Below, one piece after another: positions 1,044 to 37,619 of a stretch of DNA of 38,370 nucleotides (position 1 is its first letter; each line of letters starts with the position of its first letter). Below the pieces are notes generated by a model. It made no database searches. It was not told the DNA's origin and worked only from the letters and a program-made list of their open reading frames with translations. Made by a program: the position numbers and the translations under genes. The DNA comes from Chiloscyllium plagiosum (Eukaryota), in the NCBI RefSeq assembly GCF_004010195.1, contig NC_057718.1:43842280-43880649 (forward strand), in the 5' to 3' direction.

Positions 1044-1205
1044 GATCTGACCTCTTCTTAAATATATTAATGAGTTCACTGCCTGTTGTCAGTGAAAACG
1101 CTAGCTCCTAAATCAAGGTTCACTTGAAAATCCGAACCAGTGGACCTCTTGTGAACAGTCTTGTGATTTATTTTTAATTATCATCTCATTACCATGTCAT
1201 TTCCA
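1044..1205 (+). pseudogene. USH2A-like pseudoexon (exon 33-like)
   Basis: DL..TAC..SS*IKVH..VNSLVI..LSSH vs human DL..SAC..SSWVLLY..VDSPVL..LDSR; multiple stops. Confidence 0.5.
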
Positions 1206-1402
1206 TTTAACGATGAGTTGATGGGGGGGTGAAACTGGAAAGTAGTTTCTAAAATCTTTAGTAATTGGATATAAATAGGTTAAATGAGCTCATTAGAATT
1301 CTATATTTAAGCTAGATGAACAAAGATGTTTTGCCAACTATAATGAATTGTCGATATACCTTTTTTGAGTCTGAGTAAATTATATTTCTCTGGCAAATTT
1401 AG

Positions 1403-1567
1403 GTGGAATGAACCTGCAGAAATTAATGGTCATCTTGAACTTTACTTTCTATATGTTTGGGCCAATGAAGAGAATTTAAGGAACATAAATGTAATAGCTC
1501 CCAACTAGTTGTGAATTTCACTGTGGGATAATTTGAAACTGAGACAAAATACTTTATAAAACTTTCT
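1403..1567 (+). pseudogene. USH2A-like pseudoexon (exon 34-like, FN3)
   Basis: tttag|g TGG acceptor, then WNEPAEINGHLELYFLYV..(frameshift)SSQLVVNFTV..ETKYFIKLS vs human WKQPRKISGILERYVLYM..NSTELFQDHML..GNKYLIKLG; frameshifted, donor reads GC. Confidence 0.85.
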
Positions 1568-1659
1568 GCATCTATGTGCTATTAAAACTTAAAATGTTGA
1601 AATCTATGTTAACGGTTTTATGCCAACCTTGTGAGATTTTGATTTTTAAAAATAATCTG

Positions 1660-1797
1660 TTAGTATATGATGTGTTGTCTGGAAAGGGTCTCCATATGGA
1701 CAAACATAATGGCATAACTAAATTTGTAATCCAAAGTGCCCCTTTTCCATCACTTTGTGTTCACCTGCAAATTTTACCAACTCAAGCCACATTGAAT
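1660..1797 (+). pseudogene. USH2A-like pseudoexon (exon 35-like, weak)
   Basis: HNGITKFVIQSAPFPSLCV aligns without gaps to human PEGVPAPKAHSYSPDSFNV; expected position in the series. Confidence 0.3.
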
Positions 1798-2466
1798 TTA
1801 GGATTACTTTCTAATTGAAATATTACTTGGGGGAAAAAAAAGATTATTAGCTGCTGAGAGGGCACAGGTTCAATACTATGCAAGGTTTTAAATTCGTAGG
1901 AAATGTGATTGAATCAATGCCCTGACATCATCTCAGCCATTTCTGGGTTTGCTGATGAGGCTTTCAGATAGGTAACTTTTATTTGTGAAAACTTACTGTT
2001 TCATCAAGGCATACTAACTTTAATTGTTAGAAATATATTTTCTGGGCTGTCTGCAACCCACTGGAATCAATTAAGTGAGAATGGAAAGTAACAGCAGCTA
2101 CCTTCTCCTCAGCCATGTGTCACTCCACACTGCAGAGGGAACAGACCCCAAGAAACAGCTTAAACAATGTGAGGCCCCCAATACAAGGTATACAGGCAGG
2201 AGATTAATTTGACATTCAGGATTTCAGTACAGGTCCCTGGTAATATTTCTAATGTCCTTTCCAGTGGGAGAGATGGGCATTACTGCCAGTGGCTATCACA
2301 AGAACATGACCCATAACTCCCACTTTGGTTCTCTGTCACTCGACAAAGATGCAAGTTGTCTTTACCCACAAGGAGATAAAGCAGAGAGTTATGCTCATGA
2401 GAGATGGCTTGAATGGAGGGGAGAGGAGGGAAGGAGGAAACATATGAATAGTGACTGTGAGGCATA

Positions 2467-2600
2467 GGAACTAAGGGATATGGGGATAGTTCGGGTAAAT
2501 GGCATTGAAATGCCCATCAGCCATGATTGAATGGCGGAGTGGACTTGATGGGCCAAATGACCTTACTTCCACTCCTATTTCTTATGGTCTTACGGTCTTA
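2467..2600 (+). mobile_element. CR1 3' end with (TCTTATGG)n-type tail
   Basis: KGYG end of ORF2, 3' UTR gatgggccaaatgacc, tandem tail. Confidence 0.85.
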
Positions 2601-3614
2601 TAGGAGTGAGATGGCACAAAGGTAGGGATGTGTTGTTGGTCCAGATGGAGATGTAAGGATGTGCCTGGAGAGAGAAAATTAGTGGAGGTGTAAAGTGTGC
2701 AGCCTGAGAAGTACTCAGCTGGAGGATGCTAGGAAAGACCAAAGTGTGGGACATGGTAGTTGAAAGGACACCACTCATCATTCCTAGTCTGTTGTGATTC
2801 TTGATTGTCTTGGTGCAATGTCTCCAGATTGGTGGAGATTCACGCTGCTGCACATTTCAACATTGAAAACACTCTATACTCAGTGCTGGGAAATCTTGCT
2901 TTTTGAGGTGCTATAGAGATCCACAATGCCAGCACTTTTAAAATGGCTGCTCGAGCTTTCCACTCTTTCCCCATTTTAGTGAGTTTTTGGAGGAGCAGGC
3001 CTGCCCCCTCTCGGTCTGGCAAGCTAAAAGCTCCAAAGCCTCCATTTTTAAATAGAATATCTGACAGCTTTTTGCTATACGGCCCAACAACAATGTGGTC
3101 GCAATAATTTTGTTTTTCAACACACCTTACCAAGACAGGTATATAAGGAAAGATTTAATAGATTTCTCTGGCCTTTGGGATCTCTGATTAAATTATGTTC
3201 ACTCGCTCAGGGTTCCATTGTTAGATTGAAGAATGCATTAAATCCTTTAAAGTCGATGAATCCAAAATCTGCAGGAGTCTCATCTACACCCTAACTTGTG
3301 AGATCATCATCTGCAATGGACCCTACTACATTCACTGCAATGTACTTACCTGGTGCTTCTGCTCTTCAGCATACAAACTCTATACGGTTTGATCTCTCTT
3401 GAATTGTTTTATGTATAACTGACTACCCTGGTCTTTCTATGGATTTTCAGGATTTCCGAAGGCTTTCTATACGGTCCCACAAAAGAGATCAATGTGTAAA
3501 ACAGAAATGCGTTGATTTGGGCATTGTGTATTGTCATAGGGAGGCCACTGGTTGGCAGATAGAAAAAAAAACTTGGCAATTAAAAAGTTTTTTTTGAGTG
3601 GCAACAAGAAACTA

Positions 3615-3814
3615 TGATTTGGAGGTGCCGGTGTTGGACTGGGGTGTACAAAGTTAAAAATCACACAATACCCAGGTTAAAGTCCAACAAGTTTAATTGT
3701 AAGCACACTAGCTTTCGTTGCTCCGAAACTACCACCTGATGAAGGAGTGACACTCTGAAAGCTAGTGTGCTTCCAATTAAACCTGTTGGTCTATAACCTG
3801 GTGTTGTGATTTTT
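3615..3814 (+). mobile_element. Fold-back non-autonomous PLE derivative (family B) with hammerhead core
   Basis: Inverted arms ~3654-3717 / ~3756-3817; 12-bp TSD aacaagaaacta (3603-3614, 3815-3826). Confidence 0.8.
3733..3767 (+). ncRNA. Minimal type I hammerhead ribozyme motif
   Basis: CAC-CTGATGA-A-GGAG(TGACA)CTCT-GAAA-GCTA-GTG: stem I CAC/GTG, stem II, palindromic AGCT stem III, CUA cleavage triplet. Confidence 0.7.
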
Positions 3815-4982: not shown

Positions 4983-5059
4983 ATCACATTGAATGATGGA
5001 GCAGCCTCAAAGAGCCAATTGGTCTCCTCCTGCTCCAATTTTCCATGGATCAAAGATTT

Positions 5060-5420: not shown

Positions 5421-5431
5421 ACTAAAAATTA

Positions 5432-5660: not shown

Positions 5661-6208
5661 TCTTTTCTATAGAAGATTCCAATTCTATTATTTGAACATG
5701 ATTGCTGATATTATTGTTGCACCATGATATACATCACTATCTCATTACTCAATAATAACCAAACAGGACAAGACAGACACTATTGAAGCAAACTAGTCAG
5801 AAGCATTATCGAGTGAAAGTATAGGTGAATGATAGCAGATGTTTAATATTGAATTCACTTTATTGCAGAATAAATATATATGCCCTAAGGCAAGAAGTCG
5901 ACTTACCAAATAAAACTGCTTTTGTCAACAAAACAAGTAAGACATGACCCAATTAAAGAAAAGAACATGCTGAAATGAAAAGAATAGAATATATCTACAG
6001 AAGTGGCAGAAATGTAACAGCAAAAGAAGGCAAAAAAGCAAGTCAGAGCTGAAAGAAGGATTATAGTGATTGGAACCAGCTGGATGTTGTTGAGTATAAG
6101 ATCCATGATTGGGCTTGTTAACCTGGCCCGATCAGGAAAGCCCGAGCTCACTAATGTAACCAGGAGATTAAGCACTACCGCTGTTTAAAAAAAACTGGAA
6201 TAGGAGAT

Positions 6209-6355
6209 CCATAAACAGGTCCAGGCAGCTTTGTGTCTTTCACTGTGTCTCACACCTGTGCGCACACACAACATGGGTGCTGGGGAAAAATAAGCACACG
6301 CAGTTAGGCGGTAGTGTGGGGTTGGTTTTTAAAAAAAAAAAGAATTTTTAAAAAA
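6209..6355 (+). mobile_element. Tx1-clade LINE 3' fragment, copy a (internally deleted)
   Basis: ccataaacaggtccaggcagc fused directly to the 3' UTR, hairpin and A-rich tail. Confidence 0.75.
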
Positions 6356-6368
6356 TGGAACATAAGAT

Positions 6369-6748
6369 CCATAAACAGGTCCAAACAGCAGGCTGTAGTG
6401 GGGGTCATTATGGCTAATTGCCTGCCCCCTTCCATGGTTACGTCTGTGCCCGGGTGCCGTGGAGAAGCAGCACGTGTTGTCAATCAACACCCTTGCGGTT
6501 TTCAGGGAGAGGTGGGCACTGCAGGGAATGGAGTGTTTTATTTCCCCATCCAATCTATTTTGATTTAATCCCTGTCCTCCCCTTCACTGTTTAATCACGC
6601 AGCATTGCCCTTTGATGAGAAGGGTGACTGTTTGTCACTGGCCACTTGGGTCTTTCCTTTCTTCCTGGTGGTGGAAATTGAATAAAGATTTATACACCTG
6701 TTGTCTTTCACTGTGTCTCACACCTACATACACACGACGTAAGAAAAA
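6369..6748 (+). mobile_element. Tx1-clade LINE 3' fragment, copy b
   Basis: INRSKQQAVVGVIMANCLP..SILI* ORF2 C-terminus plus 3' UTR with AATAAA. Confidence 0.8.
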
Positions 6749-6871
6749 ACCAGGAGAGATCAGGTGCAAAAGAAGTAACCAGGAGATTTAGAGTCTCCTC
6801 AGTTTAGAAACAAAAAGGTGTAACCAGGAAATTAAGCACTACCGCTGTTTAAAAAAATGTAACCAGGAGAT

Positions 6872-7286
6872 CTATAAACAGGTCCAGGCAGCGGGCCATG
6901 GAGGCGTTCATTATGGCCGATTGCCTGCCCCTCTTCCATGGTTAAGTCCATGCCTGGGTATCTCTGGAGAAGGAGCACACGGTGTCTACCACACTCTTGA
7001 GGTTTTCAGGGAGAGGTGGGCACCTCCAACTCTATTTTGATTTAATACCTGTCCTCCCCTTCACTGTTTGATCACGCAGCACTGCCCTTTGAGAAGGGCA
7101 CTGCTTGTCACAGGCCACTCGGGTGTTTCCTTTCTTCCTGGTGGTGAAATATAAATAAAGATTTACACACTTGTTGTTCTTCACTGTGTCTGACATTTGC
7201 ACACACGTGACATGGCTCTGGGGAAAATATAAACACTACTGTTATTAGGCAGTAGTGTGGGGGGAAATGAAATAAAGCAAAAAATA
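6872..7286 (+). mobile_element. Tx1-clade LINE 3' fragment, copy c
   Basis: Same unit, preceded by TGTAACCAGGAGAT (6858-6871) and followed by A-rich tail plus TATAACCAGGAGAT (7287-7300). Confidence 0.8.
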
Positions 7287-7452
7287 TATAACCAGGAGAT
7301 TTAGACTCTCCTCAGTTTAGGCGACTGACTATGTGCTGGATGCTACTGTTGGTTTCTGATTTTTTTGGGGGGAATCCCAATTCCTGAACTGGCTGATTTA
7401 TTTAGCCAGCTTGTTAACTGGTATTCCTTTAAAAAAAATGTAACCAGGAGAT

Positions 7453-7862
7453 CCATAAACAGGTCCAGGCAGCGGGTTGTGAAGGGGATCGTTATGGCTG
7501 ATTGCTTGCCTTTCTTCCATGGTTATATTCAGGTCTGGGTGTCCCTGGAGAAGGAGCACAAGGTGTAAACCAACACACTCGAGGTTTTCTCGGAGAGGCG
7601 GGCACCGCGGGATGTCGATTGTTTTATTTCCCCCCTCCAACTCTATTTTGATTTAGTCCCTTCCCTCCCTTTTCACTTTTTAATCACGCAGCATTGCCCT
7701 TTGATGTGAAGAGCACTGCTTGTCACTGGCCATTCTGGTGTTTCCTTTCTTCCTGGTGGTGGAAATTGAATAAAGATTTATACACTTTGTGTCTTTCACT
7801 GTGTCTCACATCTGCACACACACAACATGGGCGCTGGGGAAAAATATAAGAACTACTGCTAA
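7453..7862 (+). mobile_element. Tx1-clade LINE 3' fragment, copy d
   Basis: INRSRQRVVKGIVMADCLPFFHGYIQVWVSLEKEH; preceded by TGTAACCAGGAGAT (7439-7452). Confidence 0.8.
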
Positions 7863-7981
7863 TGTTGGTTTCTGTCTTTTTGGGGAACCTGATTCTTAAA
7901 CTGACTGAATTATATAGTCAGTTTATTAACTGGTATTCCTTTTTATTGAAGACTGATTTCTAAACTGGTTGATTTACACAA

Positions 7982-8189
7982 TGTGTTTCAGGTGTATTTC
8001 AGTTCTCATTAGGGAACTGTTGCTTCACTGGCTGGTTACAGCCTGTGTGTTAATCTTTTCTGTCAGGAATGTCAGGGGTTCTGTTCACTCAAAGTTGGCT
8101 CTGAGGGAGCTGGATCAGTGTCAGAGACTTCCACATGGAGATAAAAGGTGACTTGATAACAGGATATCAGCCTCTGTGGAGTTCTTTCA
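7982..8189 (+). mobile_element. Related short LTR-like element
   Basis: TG start; 3' end ataaaaggtgacttgataacaggatatcagcctctgtggagttctttca homologous to 9972-10021 and 23606-23651. Confidence 0.55.
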
Positions 8190-8199
8190 ATGCCAGTTC

Positions 8200-8412
8200 C
8201 ACCATATTCATTAATTTGGTCCTGCCTGTCCATCCTATTAGACTTATTTAACATTGACTTTGTCCTCAAATCACCCCACATACTGACCAACTACTCTTTC
8301 AAATACCCATCACACTAGTTTAAACCTTCCTGATTGGCACTAGGAAACCTCCCTGCTAGTGTGTCTCTAGTTTAGGTGCAACTGGTTCTTCTTGTACAGG
8401 TCCCACCTGCCC
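8200..8412 (-). mobile_element. CR1 ORF1 (esterase-like) fragment
   Basis: Minus strand GRWDLYKKNQLHL matches the W.RWDLYK.DGLHL motif. Confidence 0.75.
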
Positions 8413-8450
8413 TTTAAGTAGCACTTTTAAAAGAAATGTAACCAGGAGAT

Positions 8451-8930
8451 CCATGAACCGGTCCAGGCAGTGGGCCATGGAGGGGGTCATTATGGCAGAT
8501 TGCCTGCCCCTCTTCTGCAGTTACATTCGGGCCCAGGTGTCCTTGGAGAAGGAGCACCCAGTGTCCACCACACCCTTGAGAGTTTCAGGGAGAGGTGGGT
8601 ACCGCGCGGTGTGGAGTGCATTATTTCCCCCTCCAACTCTATTTGATTTAACCCTTGCCCTCCCCTTCACTTTTTAAATCACACAGCATTGCCCTTCGAT
8701 GTGAAGGGAACTGCTTGTCACTGGCCACTCAGGTGTTTCCTTTTTTCCTGGAGGTGGAAACTGAATAAAGAATGATACACCTGTTGTCTTCCACTGCGTC
8801 TCACACCTGCGCATGCACAACATGGGTGCTGGGGGTAAAATAAGCACTACTGCTGTTAGGTGGTAGTGTGGGGGTTTTATAAAAATGAAAAAGAAAAAAT
8901 GAAAAAAAGAGAAGAAAGATAAGAAAGACA
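8451..8930 (+). mobile_element. Tx1-clade LINE 3' fragment, copy e
   Basis: NRSRQWAMEGVIMADCLPLFCSYIRAQVSLEKEH; long A-rich tail; preceded by TGTAACCAGGAGAT (8437-8450). Confidence 0.8.
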
Positions 8931-9435
8931 ACATGAACAGAGATGTAGCATCTCCTCAGTTCAGGGGGCTGACTCTGAGCTGGCTGGCCATACAGCCAGT
9001 GTGTACTGCTGCTGTTGGTTCAGATGAAGAGGAGGTTTTTTGTTGCCCCGCTGTCTGAAGAAGACATTTGATTTTGAGTTTTCTTTATTATTTTTTGTGT
9101 TTGTCTTTCTGATTTTCTTTCTATTTTATCCTTTAATTTGAGCTGTGTTCAGCTGCACAAGCAGCTAACACCACCACTGCTGCTGCAGCAGCCGCAGCCT
9201 AGGCCTGCTCCCACTGCTGTGTCCTGGGCCTCACCTACACCTGACAACTATTACTTCTGCCTGGGGCCTGCCGACACTGCTGCTGCCTTGGGCCCCACCC
9301 AGACATAAGCACTGTTGTTGCTGCCTGGAGCAGCAACTGTTGCTGCCTGCTGCTACTTGGGGCCTACCTCTACTGCTGCTGCCTGGGCCCCACCCAGACT
9401 TAAGGACTGTTTAAAAAAAAATGTAACCAGGAGAT

Positions 9436-9850
9436 CCATAAACAGGTCCAGGTAGTGGGCCATGGAGGGGGTCTTTATGACCAATTGCCCGCCTCCCTTC
9501 CACAGTTATGTTTGGGCCCAGGAACACATGGTGTCCACCGAGACCCTCAAGATTTTCAGGGAGAGGTCGGCACCGTGTGGTGTTGAGTTTCCCCCCTCCA
9601 ATTCTATTTTGGTTGAACTCCAGCTCTCCCATTCACTTTTTTGATCACTCAGCATTGCTCTTTATTGAGGAGGTCACTGCTTGTCACTGGCCACTTGGGG
9701 TTTCTTTTCTTCCTGTTGGTGGAATATAAATAAAAATTCCTACACTTGTTGTTCTTCACTGTGTCCTACACCTGCACACACAACACGGGTGCTGGGGAAA
9801 AATAAGCACTACCGCTGTTAGGCTGTAGTGTGGATAAAAAAGAAAAAAAA
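9436..9850 (+). mobile_element. Tx1-clade LINE 3' fragment, copy f
   Basis: EH.VSTETLKIFRERSAPCGVE; hairpin 9807-9830; A-tail; flanked by 9422-9435 and 9853-9866 copies of the 14-mer. Confidence 0.8.
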
Positions 9851-10434
9851 TAGATAACCAGGAGATTTAGACTCTTCTCGGAAAAGAAATATAACCAGAA
9901 AATGAGAATCTCCTCAGTTCATGAATTCACTCCAAGCTGGCTGGCCACAGCCAGTGTACTGTGCACAAGTAAATAAAGGGTGATTTGGTGACGGGATACC
10001 AGCTTCTGTGCAGTCATTTCAGAATACAAAATGAAATTTGCAAAGGATATCAAAACTAACACGATTCTTTACAAATATATTAGAGAAAAGGGACAATTTG
10101 AAATGGCTTCAGCTATTTTAACAGACTTGTTGAAAAATTGCTTTATATCCATCCTTACAGACAGACAAAGGACAATATAGCTAACAGTCCAAAGAATAAT
10201 GAGTCAAGAATTGGAGCACACTAAGGTTGATGTTAATTAAGTACTGAAAAAGGTAATGTACTAATAGCTGATAAATTCTTAGGAACTGACAGTTTATTTC
10301 TCAGGTGAGGAAAGTTGGTGAGGAAATTGCAGATTTATTTTTTGTCATAATCATCTAAAATTTTCTTGATTCAAGAATTGTCACTCTATATTGGAAAAAT
10401 GGAAATGTTACTCCATAAACCAAGAATGTTTTGT

Positions 10435-10894: not shown

Positions 10895-11727
10895 AAAGTT
10901 AAGAGAAGCATTTTGAGATATTCTGAAAGTATGTGTGGTGTTGTGGAACAGTGAACACATACTGTATGCGTAACTCCTTTATAGAAACACAGAAATATTC
11001 TTGGAAAATATTTCTTATGCTAGGCAGTACACTTCTTATCTTGTTCAACAAAGTATTATAAGAAATATTGCCTTCAGAAGTACCCAGCCATGCAGAATTC
11101 AACTGGGACTTTCTGCTAGCTTCATTCATCTACTTCAATGCTAAATAAATTCTTCATTTTACCTCCAGTTGTATGTGCAAATCACTTGGCACAGACCAAT
11201 TCTTCCTTAATTATCGGCTACTTCCTAATGAATTCCACCACCAGTTTTATATTAATTTGTTCTTAGCTGTTTTTATACACCTTTTTCCCACTTATTTGTT
11301 CAACATTGTGAAGGGTTCAAATACTAAGGCAAGTATATCATCATTAGGAAGCCGGCAGCAGGAGCATAAATTAGAGCTTTTTTGGTACCATAAAGGGCAA
11401 ACATTTCTAAATGGTATGAGAAAAAATTTCATACTGTTCTTGAGAAAGAATGATTTAAGTTTTGTCAACAAAATAGGCAAATGGAATTTTGATGTACTTA
11501 AAAAGCATGTAGTCTACAGACCTTTGTGTATTCTGAAATAACTTTAATTTATGTACTGATTTTGAAATTGTGTTGTAGTAACATTTACATTTATTTGTCT
11601 AAAATTCCTCTGACCACTACTTTAGCAAAGGTGTTAATTAATTTATTACAAAAAGGGAAGAATTTCCATTTAAATAGACCCTCTATTATCATAAAGTGCT
11701 CTACATCGAGTGAAGTGTTTCAATGAA

Positions 11728-11826
11728 GTGTAATCACTGAATAATCATGGGAGTAAAATACAGCAGCCAACACAGCGAGACCCAACAGCTGTGATAGACG
11801 ATCTTCAGGCAAGGCTATGTCCACTT
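11728..11826 (+). pseudogene. USH2A-like pseudoexon (exon 36-like)
   Basis: Starts (G)VITE* (human GVITSY) and ends LQA..PL|gtaag (human VQACTAKGCALGPL|) with an intact GTAAG donor at 11827; internal deletions. Confidence 0.55.
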
Positions 11827-11901
11827 GTAAGATTTCATTATTCCAAAATGGGATAAAGAGGAAAACAGGATATGACTCAAGTGCTCCTGCCCTAATCCTG
11901 T

Positions 11902-12081: not shown

Positions 12082-13372
12082 ATAAAACATAGAACATAGA
12101 ACAGAACAGTGCAGAACTGGCCCTTCGGCTCTCAGTATTGCGCCGACCTGTGAACTAATCTAACCTATCCCTCTACACTATCCCATCATCATCCAAGGAT
12201 TGTTTAAATCTCCCAAATGTGGCTGAGGTAATTACATTGGCAGGCAGGGTATTTCACGCCCGTACGACTCTCTGAGTAAAGAATCTGCCTCTGACATCTG
12301 TCTTAAATCTATCACCCCTCAATTTGTAGCTATGTCCCCTCATACAAGCTGAAATCATCATTCTAGGAAAAAGACATCCACTATCTATCCTATCCTCTGA
12401 TCATCTTGTATGTCTCTATCAAATTCCCTCTTAGCCTTCTTCTTTCCAATGAGAACAGGTTCAAGTCTCTCAGCCTTTCCTCATAAGACCTTCCTTCCAG
12501 ACCAGGCAACATCCTGGTAAATTTCCTCAGCACCTTTTCCAATACTTCCACATCCTTCCTGTAATGGGGCAACCAGAACTGTACACAATATTCAAGTGCA
12601 GCCGCACTAGCATTTTGTATAGTTGCAGCATGACATTACGGCCCTGGAACTCAATTCCTCTACCAATGCAACCTAACACACTATATGACTTCTTAACAGC
12701 ACTATCAACCTGGGTGGCAACTTTCGGGGATCGATGTACATGGACTCCAAGATCCCTCAACCCTCCACACTACCAAGAATCTTTCCATTGACCCAGTATT
12801 CTGCCTTCCTGTTATTCTTCCCAAAGTGAATCACCTCACATTTATCTGCAGTGAATTCCATTTGCCACCCCTCAGCCCAATTCTGCAGATTACCCAATTC
12901 CCCCTGCAACCTTTTTCCACACTGTCCACTACTCCAGCGACTTTAGTGGCAACTTACTAACCCATTCACCTATGCCTGCGTCCTAGTCATTTATAAAAAT
13001 GACAAACAACAGTGGTCCCAAAACAGATCCTTGTGACACACCACTAGCAACTGGACTCCAGGCTGAAAATTTTCCATCAACTACCACTCTCTGCCTTCTT
13101 ACAGAAAGCCAGTTTCTAATCCAAACTGCTAAATCACCCTCAATCCCATGCCTCTGCATTTTCTCCAACAGCCTACCATGTGGAACCTTATCAAATGCTT
13201 TACTGAAGTCCATGTACAACATGTCAACTGCCCTACCTTCATTCACATACTTGGTCATCTTCTCAAAAAACTCAATGAGGTTTGTAAGACATGACCTGCT
13301 CTTGACGAAATCATGTTGGCTATCTGCAATCAAATTGTTACTTGCTAGATGATTATGAATCCTATCATGAGC
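12082..13372 (-). mobile_element. CR1 LINE, RT region to 3' tail
   Basis: ORFs [46 protein letters not shown]; tandem tail catagaa at 12088-12101. Confidence 0.97.
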
Positions 13373-13544: not shown

Positions 13545-15355
13545 GAGGCAATGGACAAGCTGCTATATGACAGCTTGGAGATTGTGGACTGGTCCATACT
13601 CAAGAACTCAGCAGCCAGCTTAATGAGTATGTCACAGACTTCACCAGTAAGTGTGTAGAGGACTGCCTGCCAAAGAAGTTAATCAGAGTGTTCCTCAATC
13701 AAAAACAATGGATGAATCAGAAAATCCACTTCCTACTGAAATCCAGGTCTGAGGCATTCATGTCAGGTGACCCTGACCTATACAGGAAATCTAGGTACGC
13801 AGAACCATCAAGGATGCCAGAATAAACTAGAATCCCAGACTAAGTACACAATCAGACGTCAACTGTGGCAAGGTTTACATGATATAAAGGGCTACAAAGT
13901 GAAGCCAGGTAGAGTCACTGATAACAATGCATCTCTCCCTGATAAGCTCAATGTATTCTCTGCTCATTTTAAACAGTGAAATTATGTCACCTGTCCCAGC
14001 AGCCGTGGGTGCATCTGTACCCACGGGCACCACCACAGACGTCAGATCAGCCTCCTTGAGGGTGAATCCATGGAAAGCGACTGGCCTGGATGGAATCCCC
14101 ACCGTGCACTCAGATCCAATGCAAACCAGTTGGCAGGAGTATTTGTAGACATCTTTAACCTCTCCTTACTATATTGTGATGTTCCCACTTGCTTCAAGAA
14201 GACTGCTATCATCCCGGTGCCAAAGATAAATCAGGCAACCTGCCTTAATATCTACTGCATGGTGGCTCTGACATCCATCATTAAGAAGTGCTTTGAGAAG
14301 TTAATAATGGCACGCATCAATTCCAGCCTCCCAGGTTGCCTTAATCTGCTACAATTTGCCTATTGTCACAATTGGTCCATAGCAGACGCCATCTCCCTGG
14401 TCCTACATTCTGGATAACAATGAAACATGAGCCAGACTCCTATTTATAGACTTTAGTTCCACCTTCAACACCATAATTCTAATAAAACTCATCTCCAAAC
14501 TCCAAGACCTCGGACACTGCTCTGCCTGTTTGCAACTGGATCCTTGACTTCCTGACCCACAGATCACAATCAGGAAGGGTAGGTGACAACACCTTCCCCA
14601 CAGTGATCCTCATCACCAGTGCCGTGCAAGGCTGTATACTCAGCCCTTTACTATACTCCTTATACACTCACAACTAAGTAGCCAAATTCAGCTCTAACTC
14701 TATTTACAAATTTGCTGATGACACCACCACAGTGGATTGGATCTCAAACAATGACAAGACGGACTACAGGAAAAAGGTAGAGCGCTTAGTGGCATGGTAT
14801 AAAGACAACATTTTTCCCTCAGTATCAGCAAAATGGAGGAACTAGTCATCGACTTCGGGAAGTAGAGTGACTGTCTGTAGTGAATGGTGCCGAGGTGTAG
14901 GTAGTCATGAGCTTCAAGTTCCTAGGAGTAAATTTCACCAACGGTCTGTCCTGGTGTATCAATGCTACAGTCAAGAAATCACACCAACACCTCTACTTCC
15001 TCAGAAAGGTTAGGAAATTCAGAATGTCCACAATGACTCTTACCAAGGACCCCTCCCACACCAGTTATACTTTCTTCCACCCTCTTCCATCAGACAGAAG
15101 ATACAAAAGTTTGAAAATATGTACCACCAGACTTAAGCACAGCTTCTTCCCCACTGTTATCCGACTTAAGAATAGACCTTTCAAAAATTAGAGTTGATTT
15201 TCTCTGCATCTTCTCTGTAGCTGAAACATTGTATTCTGCTTTCTGCTCCATTACCCTAATGTGCTTAAGTAAGGTATGATTTGTCTGGTTAGCATGCAAA
15301 TCAGTACTTTTCACTGTATCTTGGTACCTGCAGCATTAATGAATCAAATCAAAAA
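13545..15355 (+). mobile_element. Rex1/Babar-type LINE, 5'-truncated, degenerate RT
   Basis: KATGLDGIP, QLAGVFVDIFNLSL..VPTCFKKTAIIPVPK, DFSSTFNTI, QGCILSPLLYSLYTH, KFADDTT, LYFLRK..KF; tail atcaaatcaaa. Confidence 0.85.
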
Positions 15356-17067: not shown

Positions 17068-17200
17068 ACGAGAAACTGTTTCTTCAATCTGACTTGATGG
17101 GTACAGCTAAGGCACTTTTATGTATGAAACATCCAATAGGGTCTTGACTTTGATCTACAACTTTACAAATATGCTCTTAGTGACAGAATCTGTAAAAGAA
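17068..17200 (+). pseudogene. USH2A-like pseudoexon (exon 38-like)
   Basis: tttccttaaag acceptor; ETSNRVL..DLQ(fs)FTN(fs) vs human EETNLWVLIDGLVPFTNY. Confidence 0.55.
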
Positions 17201-17488
17201 AATGAAAAGCTTTCTTCCAATATTGTTTTGAAACATTTGATCTAAAATCAGACCTATTCAAGTCAATGTCAAATTTGATTATTTGAAACAACTACCCCTA
17301 ATAATTATTGTCATATTGCTAAATTAATTTCATCTGTTAAAATGACAAATTACATTAATCCAAACACAGGTGATTAAAATCTGATAGTTATTTCAGGAAA
17401 GATATGACACTTTGGAAACTTAATTCAGCTGCAAGTGGGCATGATCCAATGCAAAATTATAATTTATCAGCATGTTTAGATCTCTAAG

Positions 17489-17595
17489 CTCAGATTGAAG
17501 TTTAATCTTAGTACCATGTAATAGTAACGTCCTTGTAGGTCATGTGGGCATCAGCTGTAGCTCAATTGAGATATCTATTTGGATACTAGACTATT
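17489..17595 (+). pseudogene. USH2A-like pseudoexon (exon 39-like)
   Basis: aag|CT-CA-GAT start (human ag|CT CCA GAT = APD); TSL*VMWAS at 17527-17553 vs human TSLQVVWST; RY motif downstream. Confidence 0.7.
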
Positions 17596-17669
17596 GCATT
17601 GAAGTGACATTAACATTTCTGAGACCACAGATGATACTTGCCTGACAGGAAGCTTTAAAACAAAAAAAA

Positions 17670-21699: not shown

Positions 21700-23145
21700 T
21701 AGTGTGGTAGAGAAAACATACACTTTCTAGTTTATTGAATTTTGTGTCTTGAATGCAATGCAATTTAAGCATAAAGCAACTAATGTGAATGCTATGTAAC
21801 AGAGACTGAGAATGAAGTAGATGGTAGGACTTATTTTTTTCCAAATCCTAAGTTGTTCTCCCACCAAGTTCATATGACACTGATGTAGTAGTTGGCATTT
21901 AAGGCAATCCCCAGCAACAACCCTTTCAGATCCTTGCACAATATCTTCCACCAAGATTTCTTTTGCCATTATAAATACTTCTATATATTTGTGAATATGT
22001 AATTACTTTTGCTATGACTGCATTTCCCATTAATTATCTGTCTTCACAAATTCAGGCAGTCTGGAGATTTCACTGTTTACCCAGCATGCACTCTTGCAAC
22101 TTGGAAGATTAGTAGATCTCTGGATTGAAGACGACTGACCTCGAAGCTGTTCCAGACAGTGTGAGGTCTAAGAGTCATTTTAATTCTAATGTTCCTCATT
22201 GGGTTTGTCCCAAATCAGGGATTAGTTGGCAATTGATTTGCAATATGATATTCCTGCATTCATTCCTTCAGCTATATGAACAATTTAGTCTGCAGTTTGT
22301 TGAGTGATCTTACCTTTCCTGATAAGGTCGGTATTCACACCTGTTACGCTAAGTCCAAATGTGTCAACCATCTTGCATGGTCATGCTTATTAAACTGTGG
22401 AGTTTGCTGATCTGATGGGGCTGCTTCTTATGCCCACAAAACTATCAAAGTATAGATAGATGTAGAGTCAACTTCAAAGATTGAATGGGGAGCTGGGTCT
22501 TTAGCTTTCTGCCCATCAGCAATTCTGTGAATGGTTAACTATACTAGTGTCTGGTGGAGTGGTAATTTAACAATGCTGTGTGAAAAACAGCATTTTTCTT
22601 CAAAAAATATTTGTCATTTGGACCCCACACTTAGCTTCCCCAGTTGGTTATAAATGCCTCAACAAATGTGATATCCAAATTGACTGCAATTTTGATAAAG
22701 CATTTCATAGCAAACTGTAATATGTTATCTAGCATGACCCCATCAGGGATGCCATGCATTGCAAATATTTCATGCAAGACCAAGACAACTACATTAAGTG
22801 ATGATACATAACATTTCACTTATATCCACTGTGGAAAAATAATCAATGGCAATAAGATAAAGCTTACTGTAAAAAATGAATAAGCTAGTGCCCACCCATT
22901 CTCATAGTTAAATGGGAAAGTTAACAGTTTCAGTAAGCTCTGACCTGTGCATATGCAGGTGGATTATGAGAATTCCAATCTCTTGAGATCCTAGGCCACC
23001 AAACTGCAGGCCAAAATATGGCTTTGCAACTGGTGATCCTTAAGTATCCTTGGTGTATCTTATCGAGAATATCTTCCCAAAGTGAAGCTTGATTGTACCA
23101 GCCTATTATCACATGTCAGTAATTTGTCCACAATTGTGAAGTTCT
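21700..23145 (-). mobile_element. Second Gypsy element 3' portion (integrase, PPT, LTR) in opposite orientation
   Basis: ILDKIHQGYLRITSCKA..WWPRIS; IFAMHGIPDGVMLDN..QF; TVKSPDCLNL* followed by purine tract and TG; AATAAA near 21735. Confidence 0.75.
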
Positions 23146-23312
23146 GATCAGGCTCATGCCTGAGGCATAGTGACCCTTAGGTTAAACTCATGACCAGTCA
23201 TCTCTATGTAATGAGAGAACAGCCTTATTGTCCTCTGAGACTATGGTGACTTTATCCTTTTCTTAACAATCTATTTCATCTGTTGATGATGGTTTGACCA
23301 AATTAGAAACAA

Positions 23313-24949: not shown

Positions 24950-26040
24950 TTAAATTCAAAATGTCAACACTCTGAAATAGTAATTACATTTCTGGGACAC
25001 CTCAGCCAAAAATAAAGCATCATGGTTAATCCAAGGTATACAAATGCCATCAATGAATTTGACAGCACTAGAACGCTTAAGTAATGCACAACATTTCTTT
25101 GGCATGAGAAATCAAGTGACAAAGTTAATCTGAATTTAGCCAGAATGATGCAACGTAAAAGAGACCTTTAGAAAAAGGGCAAGCAATTGTTGTGCAGTCA
25201 AGGACAGACTACAACTTTTGAAAGGATGAAAGACAAGTTATTTTCTACTAATATTCTAGCACATTCCAGTTCAGGCTTATTCATTACAGTAGTCATAGAT
25301 ACATCATCCACAGGACTAGAAATAGTCCTTAAATAAATTCAATCTGACAGGAGATGAAATATTTTCCTTTTAAAATCAAGAGCATTGACTAAAAGACTGA
25401 ATCGAGTTTAGAGAAGGAAGCATTTGCAGTTACATGGGGATGTGAAAGATTCACATGGACTGAAATGTTAGGTCAAAACAGAACACAAACCTCTGGTAAC
25501 ATTGGGACTGAAATAAATCTCAACAATGCACCTATCCTTGCCAAGATTCAGGCTTAGGCTTATGAGGTGTGACAGTTATGTAATCTTTGTTGCAAACATG
25601 GCGTAAGTACTATCAGGCAGATGTTTGAATGCAGGAGTGTATGGAACAGAAAAAAGGTCTACATTTTTGGACAAAAAGTAAAATCTCATTGTATGATAAT
25701 CATAACATTTCCCTGGCAAGAGAAGGAAGACTTAAACAAATTTGTGCAGCTCAAAGGATGACAAGAGGTGCACAAAGGTCAGTCAACTCAGGCTATAAGG
25801 ATAGTTGTGCTATAGTCTGGTAGTTCAAGGGCTGAAAGGTACCAAAAGCAAAACCAACATGACAATAGGGGAAGATTTATTGGTAAAAGGTAGTTAGAAT
25901 GGATATAACACAGTCAATGCAAAAGGAAATTCTGCAGAAACTCCACAGAGACACCCAGGTACCACAAAGTGCTGAGTAAAAGAACAGGATGCAATGTGTT
26001 AGCCAGGCTTACATTTTGTCATGCCATACACAGCCAAGCA

Positions 26041-27819
26041 TCAAGAGTGTGGTGCTGGAAAAGCACAGCAGTTAGGCAGCATCCAAGGAGCAGGAGAATT
26101 GACGTTTCAGGCAAAAGCCCTTCATCGGGAATGAGGAGGTGAGCTGAAGGGGTGCTAAGATAAATAGGAGAGGAGCGGGGGGGGGGGGAGGGTAGCTGAG
26201 AGTGTGATAGGCAGATGGAGGTGGGGGTAATGGTGATAGGTCGGAGGAGAGATGGACTAGTAGGACAGGTCATGAGGGCGGTGCCAATTGTAAGTTTGGA
26301 TCTGGGATAAGGTGGGGGGAGGGGAAATAAGGAAACTGCTGAAATCCACATTAACACTGTGGGGTTGGAAGGTCTTGAGGCAGAAGATGAGGAGTACTTC
26401 CTGAGGCATCGGGTGGTTAGGGAGTGGTGATGGAGGAGACCCAGGACCTGCATGTCCTTGGCAGAGTGGGAGGGGGAGTTGAAGTGTTCAGCCACTGGGT
26501 GTTCAGCCATTGGTTGGTGCAGGTGTCACAGAGATGTTCTCTGAAGCATTCTGCAAGTAGGTGTCCTGTTCCCCAATATTAGAGGAGACTGCATTGGCAG
26601 CAATGAATACAGTAAGTGACATGTGTGGAAGGGTAGGTAAAACTCTGATGGATGTGGAAGGCTCCTTTGGGGCCTTGGACGGAGGTGAGGGGGAAGGTGT
26701 GGGCATATGTTTTGCAATTCCTGCGGTGACAGAGGAAGGTGCTGGGAGGGGATGGTGGGTTAGTGGGAGAGCGTGGACCTGACAATAGCATCATGGACAG
26801 AATGGTCTTTATGAAAAGTAGATAGGGGTGGGCAGGGAAATATATCTCTGGTGGTGGGGTCCATTTGTAGGTGGCGGAAACAGTGGAGGATGATACAGTG
26901 TATACGGAGGTTGGTGGGATGGAAGGTGAGGACCAGGGGGGTTTTGTCCTTGTTGCGGTTAGAGGGGTGGGGTTCAAGGGTGGACATGCGGGAAGTGGAT
27001 GAGATGCACTGGAGGGCATCATCAACCATGTGGAAGGGGAAATTGCATTTTTTAAAGAAGGAAGCCATCTGTTGTGTTCTGTGGTGGAACTGGTCCTCCT
27101 GGGAGCAGATGCAGCAAAAGTGGAGGAATTAGGAATAAGGGATAGCATTTTTACAGGAGGTAGGATGGGAGGAGATGTAGTTCAAGTAGCTGTGAGAGTC
27201 AGTGGGTTTGTAGACGATGTCCGTGTTGAGTCGGTCACTGTTGATGGAGATGGAGAAGTCCAGAGAGGGGAGGGAGGTGTCTGAGATGGTCCAAGTGAAC
27301 TTAAGGTCGGGTGGAATGTGTTGGTGAAGTTGATGAACTGTTCAACCTCCTTCTGGGAGCACAAGATGATGCTGATACAGTCATCAATGTAGCAGAGGAA
27401 AAGGTGGGCAAAATAGACTGTTCCACGTATCCGATAAAGAGGCAGGCATAGCTGGGGCCCATGTGGGTGACTATAGCTATGCTTTTTGTTTGGAGGAAGT
27501 GGGAGGATTCAAAGGAGAAATTATTGAGGGTGAGGACCAGTTCAGCCAAATGAATGAAAGTGTCAGTGGAAGAGTCCTGGTGGGGAAGTCGGGAGAGGAA
27601 GAAACGGAGGGCTTGGAGGCCCTCATCGTGCTGGATCTAGGTGTACAGGGACTGGATGTTTATGGTGAAGATGAGGCTTTTTGGGCCAGGGAAATGAAAG
27701 TCTTGGAGGAGGGAAGGGCGTGGGTGGTGTCCAGAATGAATGCAGGGAGTTCCTGGACCGGGGGAATAGGACAGTATCAAAGTATGTGGAGGTGAGTTCG
27801 GTCAAGCACCAAGCTCCAA
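26041..27819 (-). mobile_element. Penelope-like element (RT + GIY-YIG endonuclease), 5'-truncated and frameshifted
   Basis: ELVLTLNNFSF..LQTK..MGPSYACLF; PLVLTFHP; THVTYCIHCCQCSLL / IGE; PVAEHFNSPSH; terminus matches family A arms; 13-bp TSD acacagccaagca (26028-26040, 27820-27832). Confidence 0.93.
26097..26132 (-). ncRNA. Hammerhead motif in the PLE terminus (one core substitution)
   Basis: Minus strand ATTC-CcGATGA-A-GGGC(TTTT)GCCT-GAAA-CGTC; palindromic ACGT and GUC triplet. Confidence 0.6.
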
Positions 27820-28207
27820 ACACAGCCAAGCACCTTCAAAGACACTGATTACATCAAGATTTTCACAAAGGCAATAGGAAAGATTGGCAAATGAACTTGT
27901 TCATTTATAAAGGGAAGATGAGTTTAGTCCTAGTCAGCTGTTATCTGAGATGGATCAAAATGGCAAGATTTCATTCAGCCACAACACCCTGGTTTGTGAT
28001 AATAGTCTCCTGTAAGAACAGACAATGAACTACAATTTCTAAACAAGGATTTCAGGAACTTCACATTGGAAGCAGCCATCAATTAAGTCACAAGCTCTCC
28101 ATTTTGTCCTTAGACAAATAAAGAAACAGTTAAAGAAATCACGACTACAAAGTCACTGAATCATAAGAATTCAAGCTAACAATCAGCTCTACTTCCTTAC
28201 AGCATCA

Positions 28208-31240: not shown

Positions 31241-33041
31241 AGGCTGAATCTTACATTTTATTTGTGGCTATATGTCAGTCGCACCAGATTTCACGGAGGG
31301 TTATTCCCTACGAGGTCAAACAGGATCTCTTGCCATATCTTACTGACTTACTTAATTAACTATCTACCCAACCTGAATGGGGTCCTCTCACTTGATTCTA
31401 CCACTGACTGTATCCAGCTTGCCTCGGTACTGCCAGGATATTCTGGAAAAGCATCCATGGCATAGGCGCCATCTTTAAAAGGTTGTGTCACACCCTGATG
31501 AGCACCGTTAGTCTGCAGATCTCCTGCACAGTTCCTGCTAAATTTGCTGGGTGTTGTAGGGAAGGAAAAGAAATGGACATGGATCTCAAAATCCTGGCAG
31601 ATGGGATGGTGCAGAAGCTGGACATTCTGTTACCCAGCACTGATAGTGGAGGTTGCAACACCAAACCATGTCAACCTGGTCAGTTCCCAACCCCCTCCCA
31701 GGTCAGTGAAGTTTCAGCTGTCTGGAAGAATGCACAGCAAAGCAGAAAGCAAGTAAATGACTTTCCCCACTCCACCAGCGTTAAGTGCCTTCTCTCTGAT
31801 TCCTCACATTCTCTGCCACTGTACCCACCACTCACTAAGGCTCATGTTCTACCACTTTCACTATTTCCTACAATATTTTCCCTCTCTCGCTGTCACTCAC
31901 CCCAAGTCCCGACACCACTATTTCTGCATTCCTCTATGCAGTCTGCTCACTCACTCGGGACACCTCCTACCTGCACTGCACTAAAACAGCCACAATGTTC
32001 ATCTTCTTTAATATCTGCCTCTCTCTCATTCCAAGAAGAAAACAGCTCATAAAGGGACAGAAAGAGTCACAGTGGGTGTTGGGCTGCCTGGCATTTGGCT
32101 CTTCACCCATTACAAGGAGAGGAATTGACCCTGCCCCTGACTGCTCCGAGTGACTGACTGACCATGTCCAAGCACTTGGACTGATATTGGGGCTGCCCTT
32201 GACTTACTGTGCCAGCTCCCCAACAGTCCCCCCACACCCCCAACCAATCAAAGGCTATGTTCCTTGAGTTGACTGTGGACTGCTGACAACCATGACAATC
32301 TTGCTAGCTTTGTGTCTGTGCTAAAAGGCAATACAGCAGGGCTGTGAGCTAGGTGTCTCTGGTTGATAGACAACGTGCAAAACGTCAAGGCCAAGAAAGG
32401 CAAGGCAAAAATGCATTGAACATTCAGGTAGGCTCAAGAGAGAGTGAGCACTAAGAGAGCGTGGCTGGAGAAACAAACAGGTCAAGTCCATGACCTTAGT
32501 CCATGTTGCTGAACTCAAAGTTTCCTCAATGGAGTATTGCAATAATACTTGCCATTGCACCTCTCAAGACGTATTATTGAAGTGCATAAGCATACTATAA
32601 ATGGATTGAGAATGTGCATGAGGATTCTTAGAGACTGGCAATGTGAGATGTCATGTTGGGTGTATGGGTTAGTGCCATAAAATGTACCTGAACAATTTGT
32701 GCCTGATGCCCAGCATGAAGGTCCTTTGGTGCAAGTGGCAAGCTAAAAATTCACCAGGTTTCCGCTCTGACATCCAAGTCGAGATTTCTTGTCATCTAAT
32801 TTGCTCATGGCAGGTGGTAAGATAGGAGGCTGCATATTAAGAGGCAAAATTTCCTATTAATCTAAGTCATTAATAAGCAATAATTCCCCTTAAAAAGCAA
32901 CTCACCATGCCCTGGCTTCCATGTTCAGAACATAGTTACAAGATGTGATGAGTTGATCCCAACATTGAGATAGGCTTGTCCGGACTTTTCACATGATTCT
33001 GCCACAACCCTCATTGTGCAGGCCCTAGTAACATTTCAGCT
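31241..33041 (+). mobile_element. PIF/Harbinger DNA transposon derivative with decayed Myb/SANT-like gene
   Basis: Imperfect TIRs aggctgaatcttac (31241-31254) / gtaacatttcagct (33028-33041); DLKILADGMVQKLDILLP..VSAV..QQSRKQVND (31573-31765), pyrimidine-rich intron, then KKTAHKGTER..GVGLP (from 32036). Confidence 0.7.
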
Positions 33042-33143: not shown

Positions 33144-33240
33144 AATTTTCTCCAACATTTCCGCGATCAATTGTGCTCATTTTGATTTAATACATTAGAA
33201 GGAAGTTTTCCCTCATATTGCCAATTTCTGCAAATTTATC
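33144..33240 (+). pseudogene. USH2A-like pseudoexon (exon 40-like)
   Basis: IFSNISA..DLIH*KEVFPHIA vs human LFSNPSA..DLQPYTEYMFRLVA. Confidence 0.7.
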
Positions 33241-33269
33241 AAGTCAAGATATACTTTAATTTTGTCTTT

Positions 33270-33830
33270 CAACATGCAAACCCTAAATATTTGGTGGAAA
33301 TCCTCAATTTGTCATTACTCATGGCTTCAACATATGGATCATCAGCAGGACAAAGAGTCACAGCCAGTGTCTTTCAGTGCGCCTCAATTTATGTGTGGAT
33401 GAATTATATCATAAGTTGAAGGATAAATCTAAGAAGACAGAATGATTAAATCAGCAATGCAGTTTGTAGTCAACCAAAAAGACTGTCACTCCAACTTACA
33501 CATCAAAAAACCAGCAACCAACTTGGAATTGGAGATGCTATGACTGGAGAATAAATATACTGCAGGGAAGACTGCCTTTTAATATAAAAACAGAAAGAGA
33601 AAGAAAGACTCAGCAGTTCTGGCAGCATCTGGGAGTTAACATTTTGTGCACAATATACCTTTTCTTTGGAACTGTGATTGGAATCATGTTTTAATCTCAT
33701 CTCATCTTTTAGAAGGAACCATTAGGTAGAGTTATTTAATGCTGTAAAAATAATGTACAATGGTTTTAGGCACTTCATAGATGCATAAAGTAAAATGAGC
33801 AAAGTGATTTTCTCAGCTTAATTGTTTTGT
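33270..33830 (+). pseudogene. USH2A-like pseudoexon (large exon 41-like), interrupted by a PLE-derived insert
   Basis: VITHGFNIW vs VITHYNIY; ungapped NLCVDELYH..K..CSL*STKKTV vs NCTVMHLHP..K..CSLSPESQTV; after the insert RHFIDA*SKMS vs MRFIDKTSALS. Confidence 0.75.
33583..33675 (+). mobile_element. Degenerate single-arm PLE derivative (family C) inside exon 41-like segment
   Basis: aaaaacagaaa..actcagcagttctggcagcatctg..gagttaacattt matches the arms at 5470 and 18655. Confidence 0.6.
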
Positions 33831-34199
33831 GATAATAGAAGAGTAGAATGTAGTACACTTAAAACTAAAAAATGACGACACAATTTCTAAAAAAATATAG
33901 TGGGAAGGAATAAAATAGCAAGAATTACATTGGAGAACTTCTTCCTTCCTGTTCCACCACTGGGGAAGTTTCCAAGCATTGGGCAAGAATCAGACAGCAA
34001 GGCAAATCAGTTGTCTACTCCATGGAGGCAAGCATTTGAACTGCATAATTGAGGGTCAATTACAATCCAATTTATGAGATCTCGAGCAGTTTGGCAATGG
34101 CAGCACCTGGTCACATGGAGAGACCACCAACTCTATGGAAGTGGCTTCCCTGAGTTAGCACAGCGAACCATCCAACCTGGGAATCCATTACCAAAAGAG

Positions 34200-35140: not shown

Positions 35141-36441
35141 TTAGTAGTCACAATCCATGGAATCAAGACCAAAATCAGAGACAAAACGCAAACTGTGATG
35201 TAATATTAAACAAACACTTGAAGAACTGAATCTGAAAAAAGAACAGAAAATGTCACTTTCTTCTAAATTTAGAGAGAAAAAAATTTCAGATCTCTGTTTT
35301 GGAGAGAAATGTGAATGTTCAAGAGGGAAACGCCGAACTACTAAATCAAGATAAATACAAACTTGAAATATTATCTCTGAGCTTATAAGGTATTTAGGGG
35401 ATACCTCTGCTCAGTTCATAATGATAAATGAACATCTGAAAGAGAAAATATAAAGGATGAACTATCAGGGTGAACTAGAAGTTTTGTGTTAGAAATACAT
35501 TTAAAATATTGCCAGTTTATGGAAATACCTGGATCAATTTATGAATTAAACAGATCAGATTCAGCAGGAGCAGCTACAAAAGCGTCACCTTGAACTAAAA
35601 GCAATTATGGAAAAATGGCAAATCAGTAAATGTCACTTGTGAGACTGTCCATTAAAAGGAAGTAAAAAGAACTTAAACAACACCTAGAGGAAATTTAAAA
35701 ATACCAGTGAGTCAGCAAGTGGAAGTGGTCCAGATCTAAAAAAAACAGAGAAGGAAAAAAGGTTGGAAAGGCTTGATAGTGATTAAAGGAGTTTATGAAA
35801 GAGAAACATATGCTGGACCAACAAAAGGCTAAATCTTTGACAACAGAAGAATTCAGTGTGTAAAACCAGAAGTTTCAGTATAACAGTCTTAATAATTAGA
35901 ACAGTAAGTGCCAAGATGATGTCAACCACTTGGATTCCCATTTAGGAATTAGATCAGTCAGTGGCTGGTGTAGAACAAACGTTGAGTGTTGTGTGTCAGA
36001 ATAGGAAAATTCTGGAACAGCGGCAGCAGTCAATGAAAGAAATGCTTGATAACCCAAATAGGAGTGACTCATAACATTGCTGATAATTGTGCACATTAAA
36101 GACACCGCCAAACAAAATCAACATCATGATATCTGGATGTGTCAGCCCATTATCTCCACATTGCAGAGACTCATAGGCTCACTTGTTACTGCAGTTAACC
36201 TTTACTTTAAGAAGGATTTTACCTTCAAAATGGTTCACTTTTAAGGACTTGTGCTGTGTATATACACCTCACACGATTAGCACTGTTTTAAGCCTTACAC
36301 CGAGAACTCATGATCTAACACCTTTAAAATGGGGCAAACTATTCAGCCTTGGCAACAACGCCACCAGAAAAGGTTATGCTGCACTGACGTGTTTCTCCCT
36401 CTCTATATAGGGCAAGGTGGCACAAACCAAAGGCAGGAGGA

Positions 36442-36738
36442 GATTAGATTACCTACAGTGTGGAAACAGGCCCTTCAGCCCAACAAGTCCACACCGACCC
36501 GCCGAAGCGCAACCCACCCAGACCCATTCCCCTACACCTAACACTACAGGCAATTTAGCATGGACTTTCACCTAACCTGCACATTTTTGGACTGTGGGAG
36601 GCAACCGGAGCACCCAGAAGAAACCCACGCAGACACAGGGAGAATGTGCAAACTCCACAAGGTCAGTCGCCTGAGGCGGGAATTGAACCTGGGTCTCTAG
36701 CGCTGTGAGGCAGCAGTGCTAATCACTGTGCTGCCCAC
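36442..36738 (-). mobile_element. HE1-type V-SINE
   Basis: Reverse complement of the 28993-29287 family; attagattac tail. Confidence 0.9.
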
Positions 36739-36773
36739 AAAAGAACAGAATTTGTTCAACTGATTACTTTAAT

Positions 36774-37048
36774 GATTAGATTACCTATCGTGTGAAAGCA
36801 GGTCCTTTGGCAAGTCCACACCAACCCTCCGAAGTGCAACCCACCCAGACCCATTCCCCTGCACCTAACACAACAGGCAATTTAGCATGGCCAACTTACT
36901 AACTGCAAATCATTTGGACTGTGGTAGGAAACCCATGCAGATATGGGGAGAATGTGCAAACTCTACACAGGCAGTTGTCCAAGGCAGGAATTGAACCTGG
37001 GTCCCTGGTGTTGTGAAGCAGCAGTGCTAACCACTGAGCCACCGTGCT
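36774..37048 (-). mobile_element. HE1-type V-SINE, second tandem copy
   Basis: As above; box A/B in 36985-37045. Confidence 0.9.
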
Positions 37049-37138
37049 AATAAATCTAATGAAAAACGTGGACAGGGTTAGAGGTGAGGTGCAGGGACTA
37101 GCCCCGATGGAGGAGATGGTAGTCCTCATTATTGGAGT

Positions 37139-37251
37139 AGAAAGTGAGGACTGCAGATGCTGGAGAAGAAGGACTCATGCCCGAAATGTCGATTCTCCTG
37201 CTCCTTGGATGCTGCCTGACCTGCTGCGCTTTTCCAGCAACACATTTTCAG
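37139..37251 (+). mobile_element. Family A PLE derivative lacking the left arm
   Basis: 14-bp TSD ctcattattggagt (37125-37138, 37252-37265). Confidence 0.8.
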
Positions 37252-37619
37252 CTCATTATTGGAGTGCCAATAGCTGAGGCTGGGACTGGAGCAGGGGGTT
37301 GGAAACCACGTGGAATTATATTTCAATAACTGCTTTTGTGCAGCCAAGGAAAAGGAAGGAAATACAAATTTATGATGATGACAGCTGGAGTTCTCTCCTC
37401 ACCTGTTTATCTCTTCATCTCAGAATAAAAAGCCTAGTGAAAAAGTAATCTGAGGAAATAACTTTTCTCTGAGAACTCTAGAATATCTACATGTCTTCCT
37501 ACTGCTGAGGATTTCAAGGTACAATTAACAATTGTGGTCTCAGGTTAAGAATCTAACAGCTTGAGGATTGGTTAACTGCATAACCTTTATTTTCCTGTCT
37601 GTATCAGGCACACTCCTTT

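Follow-up and report, generated by a model that had tools for sequence, protein, structure and literature searches.

A decayed FN3 exon in the window

The window, i.e. the whole stretch of DNA analysed here, comprises 38,370 nucleotides (nt) of contig NC_057718.1 of the shark Chiloscyllium plagiosum (forward strand, positions 43,842,280 to 43,880,649). It is rich in repeats, its GC content per kb ranges from 33 to 53%, and no neighbouring gene is recognised within its 38,370 nt. The element in question is a decayed fibronectin type III (FN3) exon on the + strand at 1403..1567, which was defined by its profile score, shuffled nulls, acceptor, phase and length and which is likely exon 34 of USH2A, the usherin gene. 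A first-pass annotation had described a series of FN3-type + strand peptides between the repeats as segments of a fossil usherin gene. The peptides are present in the sequence, but only segment 1403-1567 scores above chance (reached by 0/100 and by 0/400 shuffles), and the peptide DLQ.FT(N) had no match within one frame.

The references used in the comparison were invertebrate multi-FN3 loci from metagenomes, all of them distant, together with the exon limits and residues of the human gene. A generic FN3 pattern retrieved 128 loci, mostly with animal-type FN3 frames, from 6 of the 64 parts of the metagenome collection. Two profiles were built, a generic one from 61 FN3 domains and a second, usherin-type one from 86 real FN3 domains of 27 chosen loci, and our own frameshift-aware aligner was used with them. 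Place ranks compare the score at a predicted place with the scores of equal-sized places in the window.

Both profiles rank 1401/1404-1570 (+) first, with 65.1 half-bits for the generic and 62.6 half-bits for the usherin-type profile. The runners-up on the + strand reach 40.2 and 39.3 half-bits, respectively, and none of 100 shuffles attained the top score. For the usherin-type profile 400 shuffles were scored; their mean was 42.4 ± 4.2 and their maximum 55.8, such that none attained 62.6 half-bits (one-strand Gumbel P 0.0018). With frameshifts barred, the best score was 55.5. The exon 34 place ranks 1/204 with the FN3 profile, and in a plain hidden Markov model (HMM) search the two frames of the segment join up, the first covering model positions 19-51 and the second 52-76. 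Once a frameshift is allowed, 1404-1570 is recognised as FN3, a result obtained for this segment alone. The profile match runs from the acceptor to the exon limit, so the introns have been retained.

Position-matched pieces of the invertebrate loci rank the exon 34 place 2/204. Positions 1-55 of a domain of locus L002 align end to end on 1404-1564 with one frameshift, and the segment and this position-matched domain have in common an I(L)NG loop that lacks the usual Pro. With locus L111 added, the place ranks 2/204, yet the score was reached by 37 of 100 shuffles. The invertebrate loci differ from the window in their intact open frames, and they are too distant for significance alone. L002 and L111 presumably correspond to usherin around exons 32-38, and L050, L093 and L106, which we take to be of the same kind, around exons 41-42. 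In the Atlas, an FN3 cluster came third, at 0.83, for the exon 34 piece and serves as a lead only.

Geometry of human exon 34

The long isoform of human usherin, NM_206933.2, is encoded by 72 exons and contains 5,202 amino acids with 32 FN3 domains, according to the accessible parts of PMC10258241 and PMC9399374. In the available rows of Table S2 (PMC9399374), exon 33 extends from Asp2109 to c.6485 (160 nt), exon 34 comprises c.6486-6657 (172 nt) and starts one base before Trp2163, its first whole codon, and exon 42 ends at c.8558. The first-pass annotation had the similarity start at about residue 2110, in agreement with the first residue of exon 33. Ten exons of the human gene, 33-42, cover the span of the window; the LamNT, EGF, LamG, transmembrane and PDZ-binding parts are encoded outside these exons and therefore lie outside the window.

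In the shark sequence, a canonical acceptor, tttag, is followed by G at 1403 and then by TGG, i.e. in the same phase as human exon 34. Among the 735 TGG triplets on the + strand, only 27 are preceded by a YAG so placed. The end at 1567, one codon past the terminal Leu, results in a length of 165 nt vs 172 nt in the human gene. The donor reads GC instead of GT, the frame is shifted near 1480-1500, the first frame stops at 1506-1508, and the second frame contains a TAA at 1529; these lesions are disabling. The register was checked from the 3' end with four tabled human residues of exon 34 (Ser2196, Gln2201, Pro2210 and Leu2218; PMC9399374 Table S2), and Ser2196, 22 codons before the terminal Leu, and Leu2218 match. 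Segment 1403-1567 is thus a decayed FN3 exon, and its phase, first codon and length indicate that it is likely exon 34 of USH2A.

Further candidate segments on the + strand

In total, nine candidate segments were judged. One passes the test, two are weak hints (the exon 38- and exon 39-like segments), four were recognised by eye only and two have evidence against them. The motifs that led to these segments lie on the + strand at 1404 (WNEPAE), 1544 (TKYFIKL), 11730 (VITE), 17527 (TSL*VMW), 33145 (IFSNISA), 33311 (VITH), 33458 (CSL), 33774 (FID), 36226 (QNG), 36279 (STVLS), 36380 (CTD) and 37300 (WKP).

The two weak hints follow 1403-1567 downstream, in the right order and on the right strand. 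The candidate exon 38 relic at 17100..17260 (limits approximate) was the best or second-best of 164 places with the position-matched invertebrate piece (1/164 and 2/164); the alignment is gappy and its score was reached by 16 of 100 shuffles. With the FN3 profile the exon 38 place ranks 76/164, and BLASTP at this place found nothing. The candidate exon 39 relic at 17480..17595 has an acceptor in phase, 3 nt off, and reads T S L stop V at 17527 vs P T S L Q V in human exon 39, as deduced from oligo ASO_39E (PMC10258241 supplement 1) and numbered from Pro2448 to Val2453 according to the available part of PMC9399374 Table S2. Its place ranks 173/340 with the FN3 profile. A 49-nt piece of a duplicated repeat starts at 17596, directly after the segment; the repeat resembles a long interspersed element (LINE), it occurs locally at 17596-17644 and 18127-18175 (94% identical), and its first copy terminates the exon 39-like island.

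The candidate exon 33 relic at 1045..1195, recognised by eye only, has lost its acceptor, is followed by GT at 1196 and measures 151 nt vs 160 nt. A stop at 1109 is found where a conserved residue was expected, and the place ranks 75/206 with the FN3 profile and 51/206 and 64/206 with the invertebrate pieces. Also by eye only, a candidate exon 41 relic was recognised at 33235..33950; stops occur in it at 33443 and 33467, in positions expected to hold conserved residues, a fragment of a short interspersed element (SINE) lies at ~33584-33680, and it ranks 118/134 and 96/102 with the FN3 profile and 168/262 and 102/102 with the invertebrate pieces. The third segment of this group, a candidate 5' part of exon 42 at 36195..36400, has a tgcag acceptor no more than 7 nt from where one was expected. 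A TAA at 36208 stands in place of Trp2744, and the motif spacings are 11-16 nt off; its ranks are 42/158 (FN3 profile) and 179/218 (invertebrate pieces). The WKP place ranks 69/240. Against the presumed human sequence, the exon 33, 41, 42 and WKP pieces look plausible; none ranks high. SINE copies are found within or next to the islands that resemble exons 41 and 42, as the first-pass annotation had proposed for the exons. The stops and frameshifts it had mentioned are firm in 1403-1567, and the others (1109, 17527, 33443, 33467, 36208) sit in candidate segments.

Two segments have evidence against them. VITE..PL/gtaag at 11728..11826 ends with a canonical donor, as had been claimed, and is doubtful as exon 36: it measures 99 nt vs 152 nt and has no AG acceptor. 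Its FN3 profile rank is 42/252; the exon 36 place ranks 63/110 with the invertebrate piece. The 5' half of the segment resembles what we take to be an old shark SINE (11670-11790), and SINE checks on this region were blank. The IFSNISA motif at 33145..33165, another of the proposed usherin segments, ranks 252/304 and leaves no room for exon 40 and the start of exon 41. From Ser2492 to VITH, with VITH at its presumed place relative to Tyr2566, at least 210 nt are needed even without an intron, and the window offers 160 nt. IFSNISA as exon 40 is therefore ruled out unless a further deletion occurred, and the motif is probably due to chance.

Phase and length agree with USH2A in exon 34, and the exon 39 acceptor is in phase, 3 nt off; VITE and IFSNISA disagree. 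Similarity colinear over exons 33-42 was assessed with the invertebrate pieces only; the places of exons 34 and 38 came first or second, and four others did not.

Repeats and retroelements

Self-BLAST covered 9,256 nt of the window, and a fuller mask, partly set by eye, left 19,791 nt. The repeat and retroelement content was scanned with Pfam in 20 chosen frames. Retroelement relics lie at 12090-13370 (-), 13550-15200 (+), 22640-23150 (-) and 26040-27830 (-), with Pfam matches to RVT_1 (E 6e-18, the reverse transcriptase match, at 12899-13369), PF09004 (E 4e-6) and Integrase_H2C2 (E 0.018). The relic at 26040-27830 (-) was judged Penelope-like by eye only. At 6155-10021, one repeat unit is present as five decayed head-to-tail copies, spaced ~470-1000 nt apart and with 60-87% similarity; the array is a local amplification of one element. 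The longest stop-free + strand frame, 31408-32049 (+) with 214 codons, is unmasked and has no Pfam match; it is probably a transposon relic.

Three SINE copies are located between the CTD and WKP motifs. One of them, at 37139..37251 (+), is young and flanked by a 14-bp target-site duplication at 37125 and 37252. A 9-bp direct repeat at 36436 and 37109, with two SINE copies and a further 65 nt lying between its halves, may have arisen as the target-site duplication of a single nested insertion or may be a coincidence. Rfam returned no match over 1-36400, and no RNA sample is listed as matching 1000-3600.

Interpretation and alternative explanations

We assign a probability of about 0.7 to the reading that 1403-1567 is exon 34 of the shark's own USH2A, that the window represents the decayed exons 33-42 from the middle of an unprocessed pseudogene, and that no long usherin is made. 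Features observed directly speak for it: the segment matches FN3, its acceptor has the exon 34 phase, its length is nearly that of the human exon, and it carries a frameshift, stops and an altered donor. The likeness to human USH2A consists in an FN3 exon with exon 34 phase, a first Trp and a near-equal length, followed on the same strand by candidates for later exons whose order agrees; the window differs by its frameshift, its stops, the altered donor and the inserted retroelements, and exons 35, 37 and 40 were not found in it. That the relic is an unprocessed pseudogene, as had been proposed, holds for a decayed, intron-flanked FN3 exon with exon 34 geometry, and for that exon alone. The data of the window establish one exon, not gene loss as such.

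A transcript with the exon 34-like segment would end at the stop at 1506, and skipping of exon 34 alone (172 nt) would shift the frame. Since inclusion would stop translation and skipping would shift the frame, no route across this region would yield the long transmembrane isoform. Selection would have lapsed once the first lesion had arisen, and the exons would have drifted neutrally while retroelements accumulated. In the available text of PMC10258241, the long isoform is the hair-cell and photoreceptor form, and exons 1-21 encode a separate short isoform. The window is silent on that short isoform and on the tail.

Several observations weigh against this reading. Eight of the nine segments have no passing result. 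The motifs CSL, FNI, QNG and FID together have dozens of matches on both strands; three-letter motifs are frequent by chance. In exon 34 itself, Gln2201 and Pro2210 mismatch, the latter being one base off a Pro codon. The training motif was picked after segment 1403-1567 had been seen; the segment itself lacks the second Pro of that motif. The tools label L002, L111, L050, L093 and L106 as fn3 only, their usherin name being presumed. None of the 23 frames scanned over the islands had an fn3 match in Pfam (PF00041), even with E values of up to 10 admitted; the pieces each amount to half a domain. Word searches revealed no relative, and the two bacterial repeat proteins that came from a profile search of 1.84 billion proteins are unrelated and were rejected as spurious. 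Row 2514 of PMC9399374 Table S2, in the part available, gives Arg2608His for c.7823G>A vs the presumed Cys of the CSL motif, so that either the table or the presumed residue is wrong.

Other searches were blank. PDB has no chain named usherin, exact look-ups matched in 0/8 cases, and a window-derived pattern had 0 matches in the metagenomes. Plain tblastn of 131 FN3 frames against the window performed no better than against the reversed window. A six-frame hmmsearch without frameshifts had its top hit at 11.2 bits, compared with 11.1 bits for the reversed window and 13.0 bits for one of 15 shuffles, and was not significant. Single invertebrate queries gave null-level scores at the predicted places, that of exon 34 included. 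Because the references are distant, the blank ranks at the other places reflect low power as much as absence. The metagenomes also contain contigs with long multi-FN3 open frames, one of them stop-free over 1,405 codons (L065/L066, L110-L115, L046/L047, L056/L057, L041/L042, L020). These frames look like what we take to be animal usherin; L041 and L020 presumably are of vertebrate origin.

The gene might survive in a shortened form, in which splicing bypasses the dead FN3 exons or the downstream exons still supply a membrane anchor and PDZ-binding tail and nothing more. In its favor, zebrafish usherin is again expressed and localised when one FN3 domain is taken out (exons 30-31 or 39-40), according to the accessible part of PMC10258241, and human exons 33-35 jointly comprise 480 nt and are in frame (limits from the excerpted PMC9399374 Table S2). 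This explanation is unlikely, however, given that no intact FN3 exon is found across 38 kb, where the human gene has ten exons; the second-best + strand profile score, 39.3, falls inside the null range.

It is rather improbable that only 1403-1567 is real and derives from another FN3 gene, of the PTPRQ, sidekick, DSCAM or neogenin type, with the remaining motifs arising by chance. Such an origin would fit a match that is significant for FN3 in general, and for which the score of the generic profile is no lower than that of the usherin-type profile; it would also fit the frequency of the short motifs and the eight segments that do not pass. Arguing against it are the agreement of phase, first codon and length with USH2A exon 34, the Pro-less motif as in the position-matched domain, and the exon 38- and 39-like hints that follow in order.

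The first-pass annotation had also considered a lost duplicate. A dead ohnologue or segmental copy, with an intact USH2A elsewhere, would suit the deep decay, and a sister copy was once possible inasmuch as the ERR loci arose by block duplication. In lamprey and jawed vertebrates, according to the same source as far as available (PMC7617844), USH2A lies next to ERRgamma in a single copy, and a dead duplicate is quite improbable. Assembly errors in an intact gene are highly improbable: several kinds of lesions and many residue changes occur in one exon, and 0.92-0.93 of the sampled 1000-3600 words are present in the contigs from four sequencing runs of a single sample, which may be the source sample. 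Shares of 0.37-0.39 and 0.24-0.26 in organisms B and C carry no weight in the argument.

Implications for usherin in sharks

In developing hair bundles the ankle links are formed by usherin, which is also located at the photoreceptor cilium; zebrafish mutants lose photoreceptors and one line also has impaired hearing, as stated in the available text and table of PMC12226551. Defects in USH2A cause most cases of Usher type 2, a deaf-blindness in people.

Gene loss that leaves an unprocessed relic is well known as a kind of event; the gene and the lineage would surprise an Usher specialist. In the available text of PMC12361510, cartilaginous fish have lost a short-wave opsin, and the present case would likewise concern a lineage of cartilaginous fish in which a sensory gene has been disabled; it differs in that a structural gene of hair bundles and photoreceptors is concerned and that the relic is still in place. 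Among the literature matches listed, which cover few subscription journals, there is no report of a loss of USH2A or usherin in sharks or cartilaginous fish. To the case for such a loss the window alone adds one firm exon, not proof.

It is possible, though doubtful, that this shark lineage lives without the entire usherin ectodomain and has kept just the membrane anchor and the PDZ-binding tail. If only the tail survives, this would bear on the minimal usherin sought by exon-skipping therapy (PMC10258241, in the part available). A vertebrate lineage able to dispense with the long isoform would reveal what can take the place of that isoform, and it makes testable the question of whether the ankle links and the ADGRV1-whirlin-PDZD7 complex have been kept. 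If true, hair bundles and photoreceptors would be built without a usherin link that is otherwise kept in vertebrates, and loss of the ectodomain with retention of the tail would constitute a natural knockout and, at the same time, a natural mini-usherin, showing how small the useful part of the protein can be.

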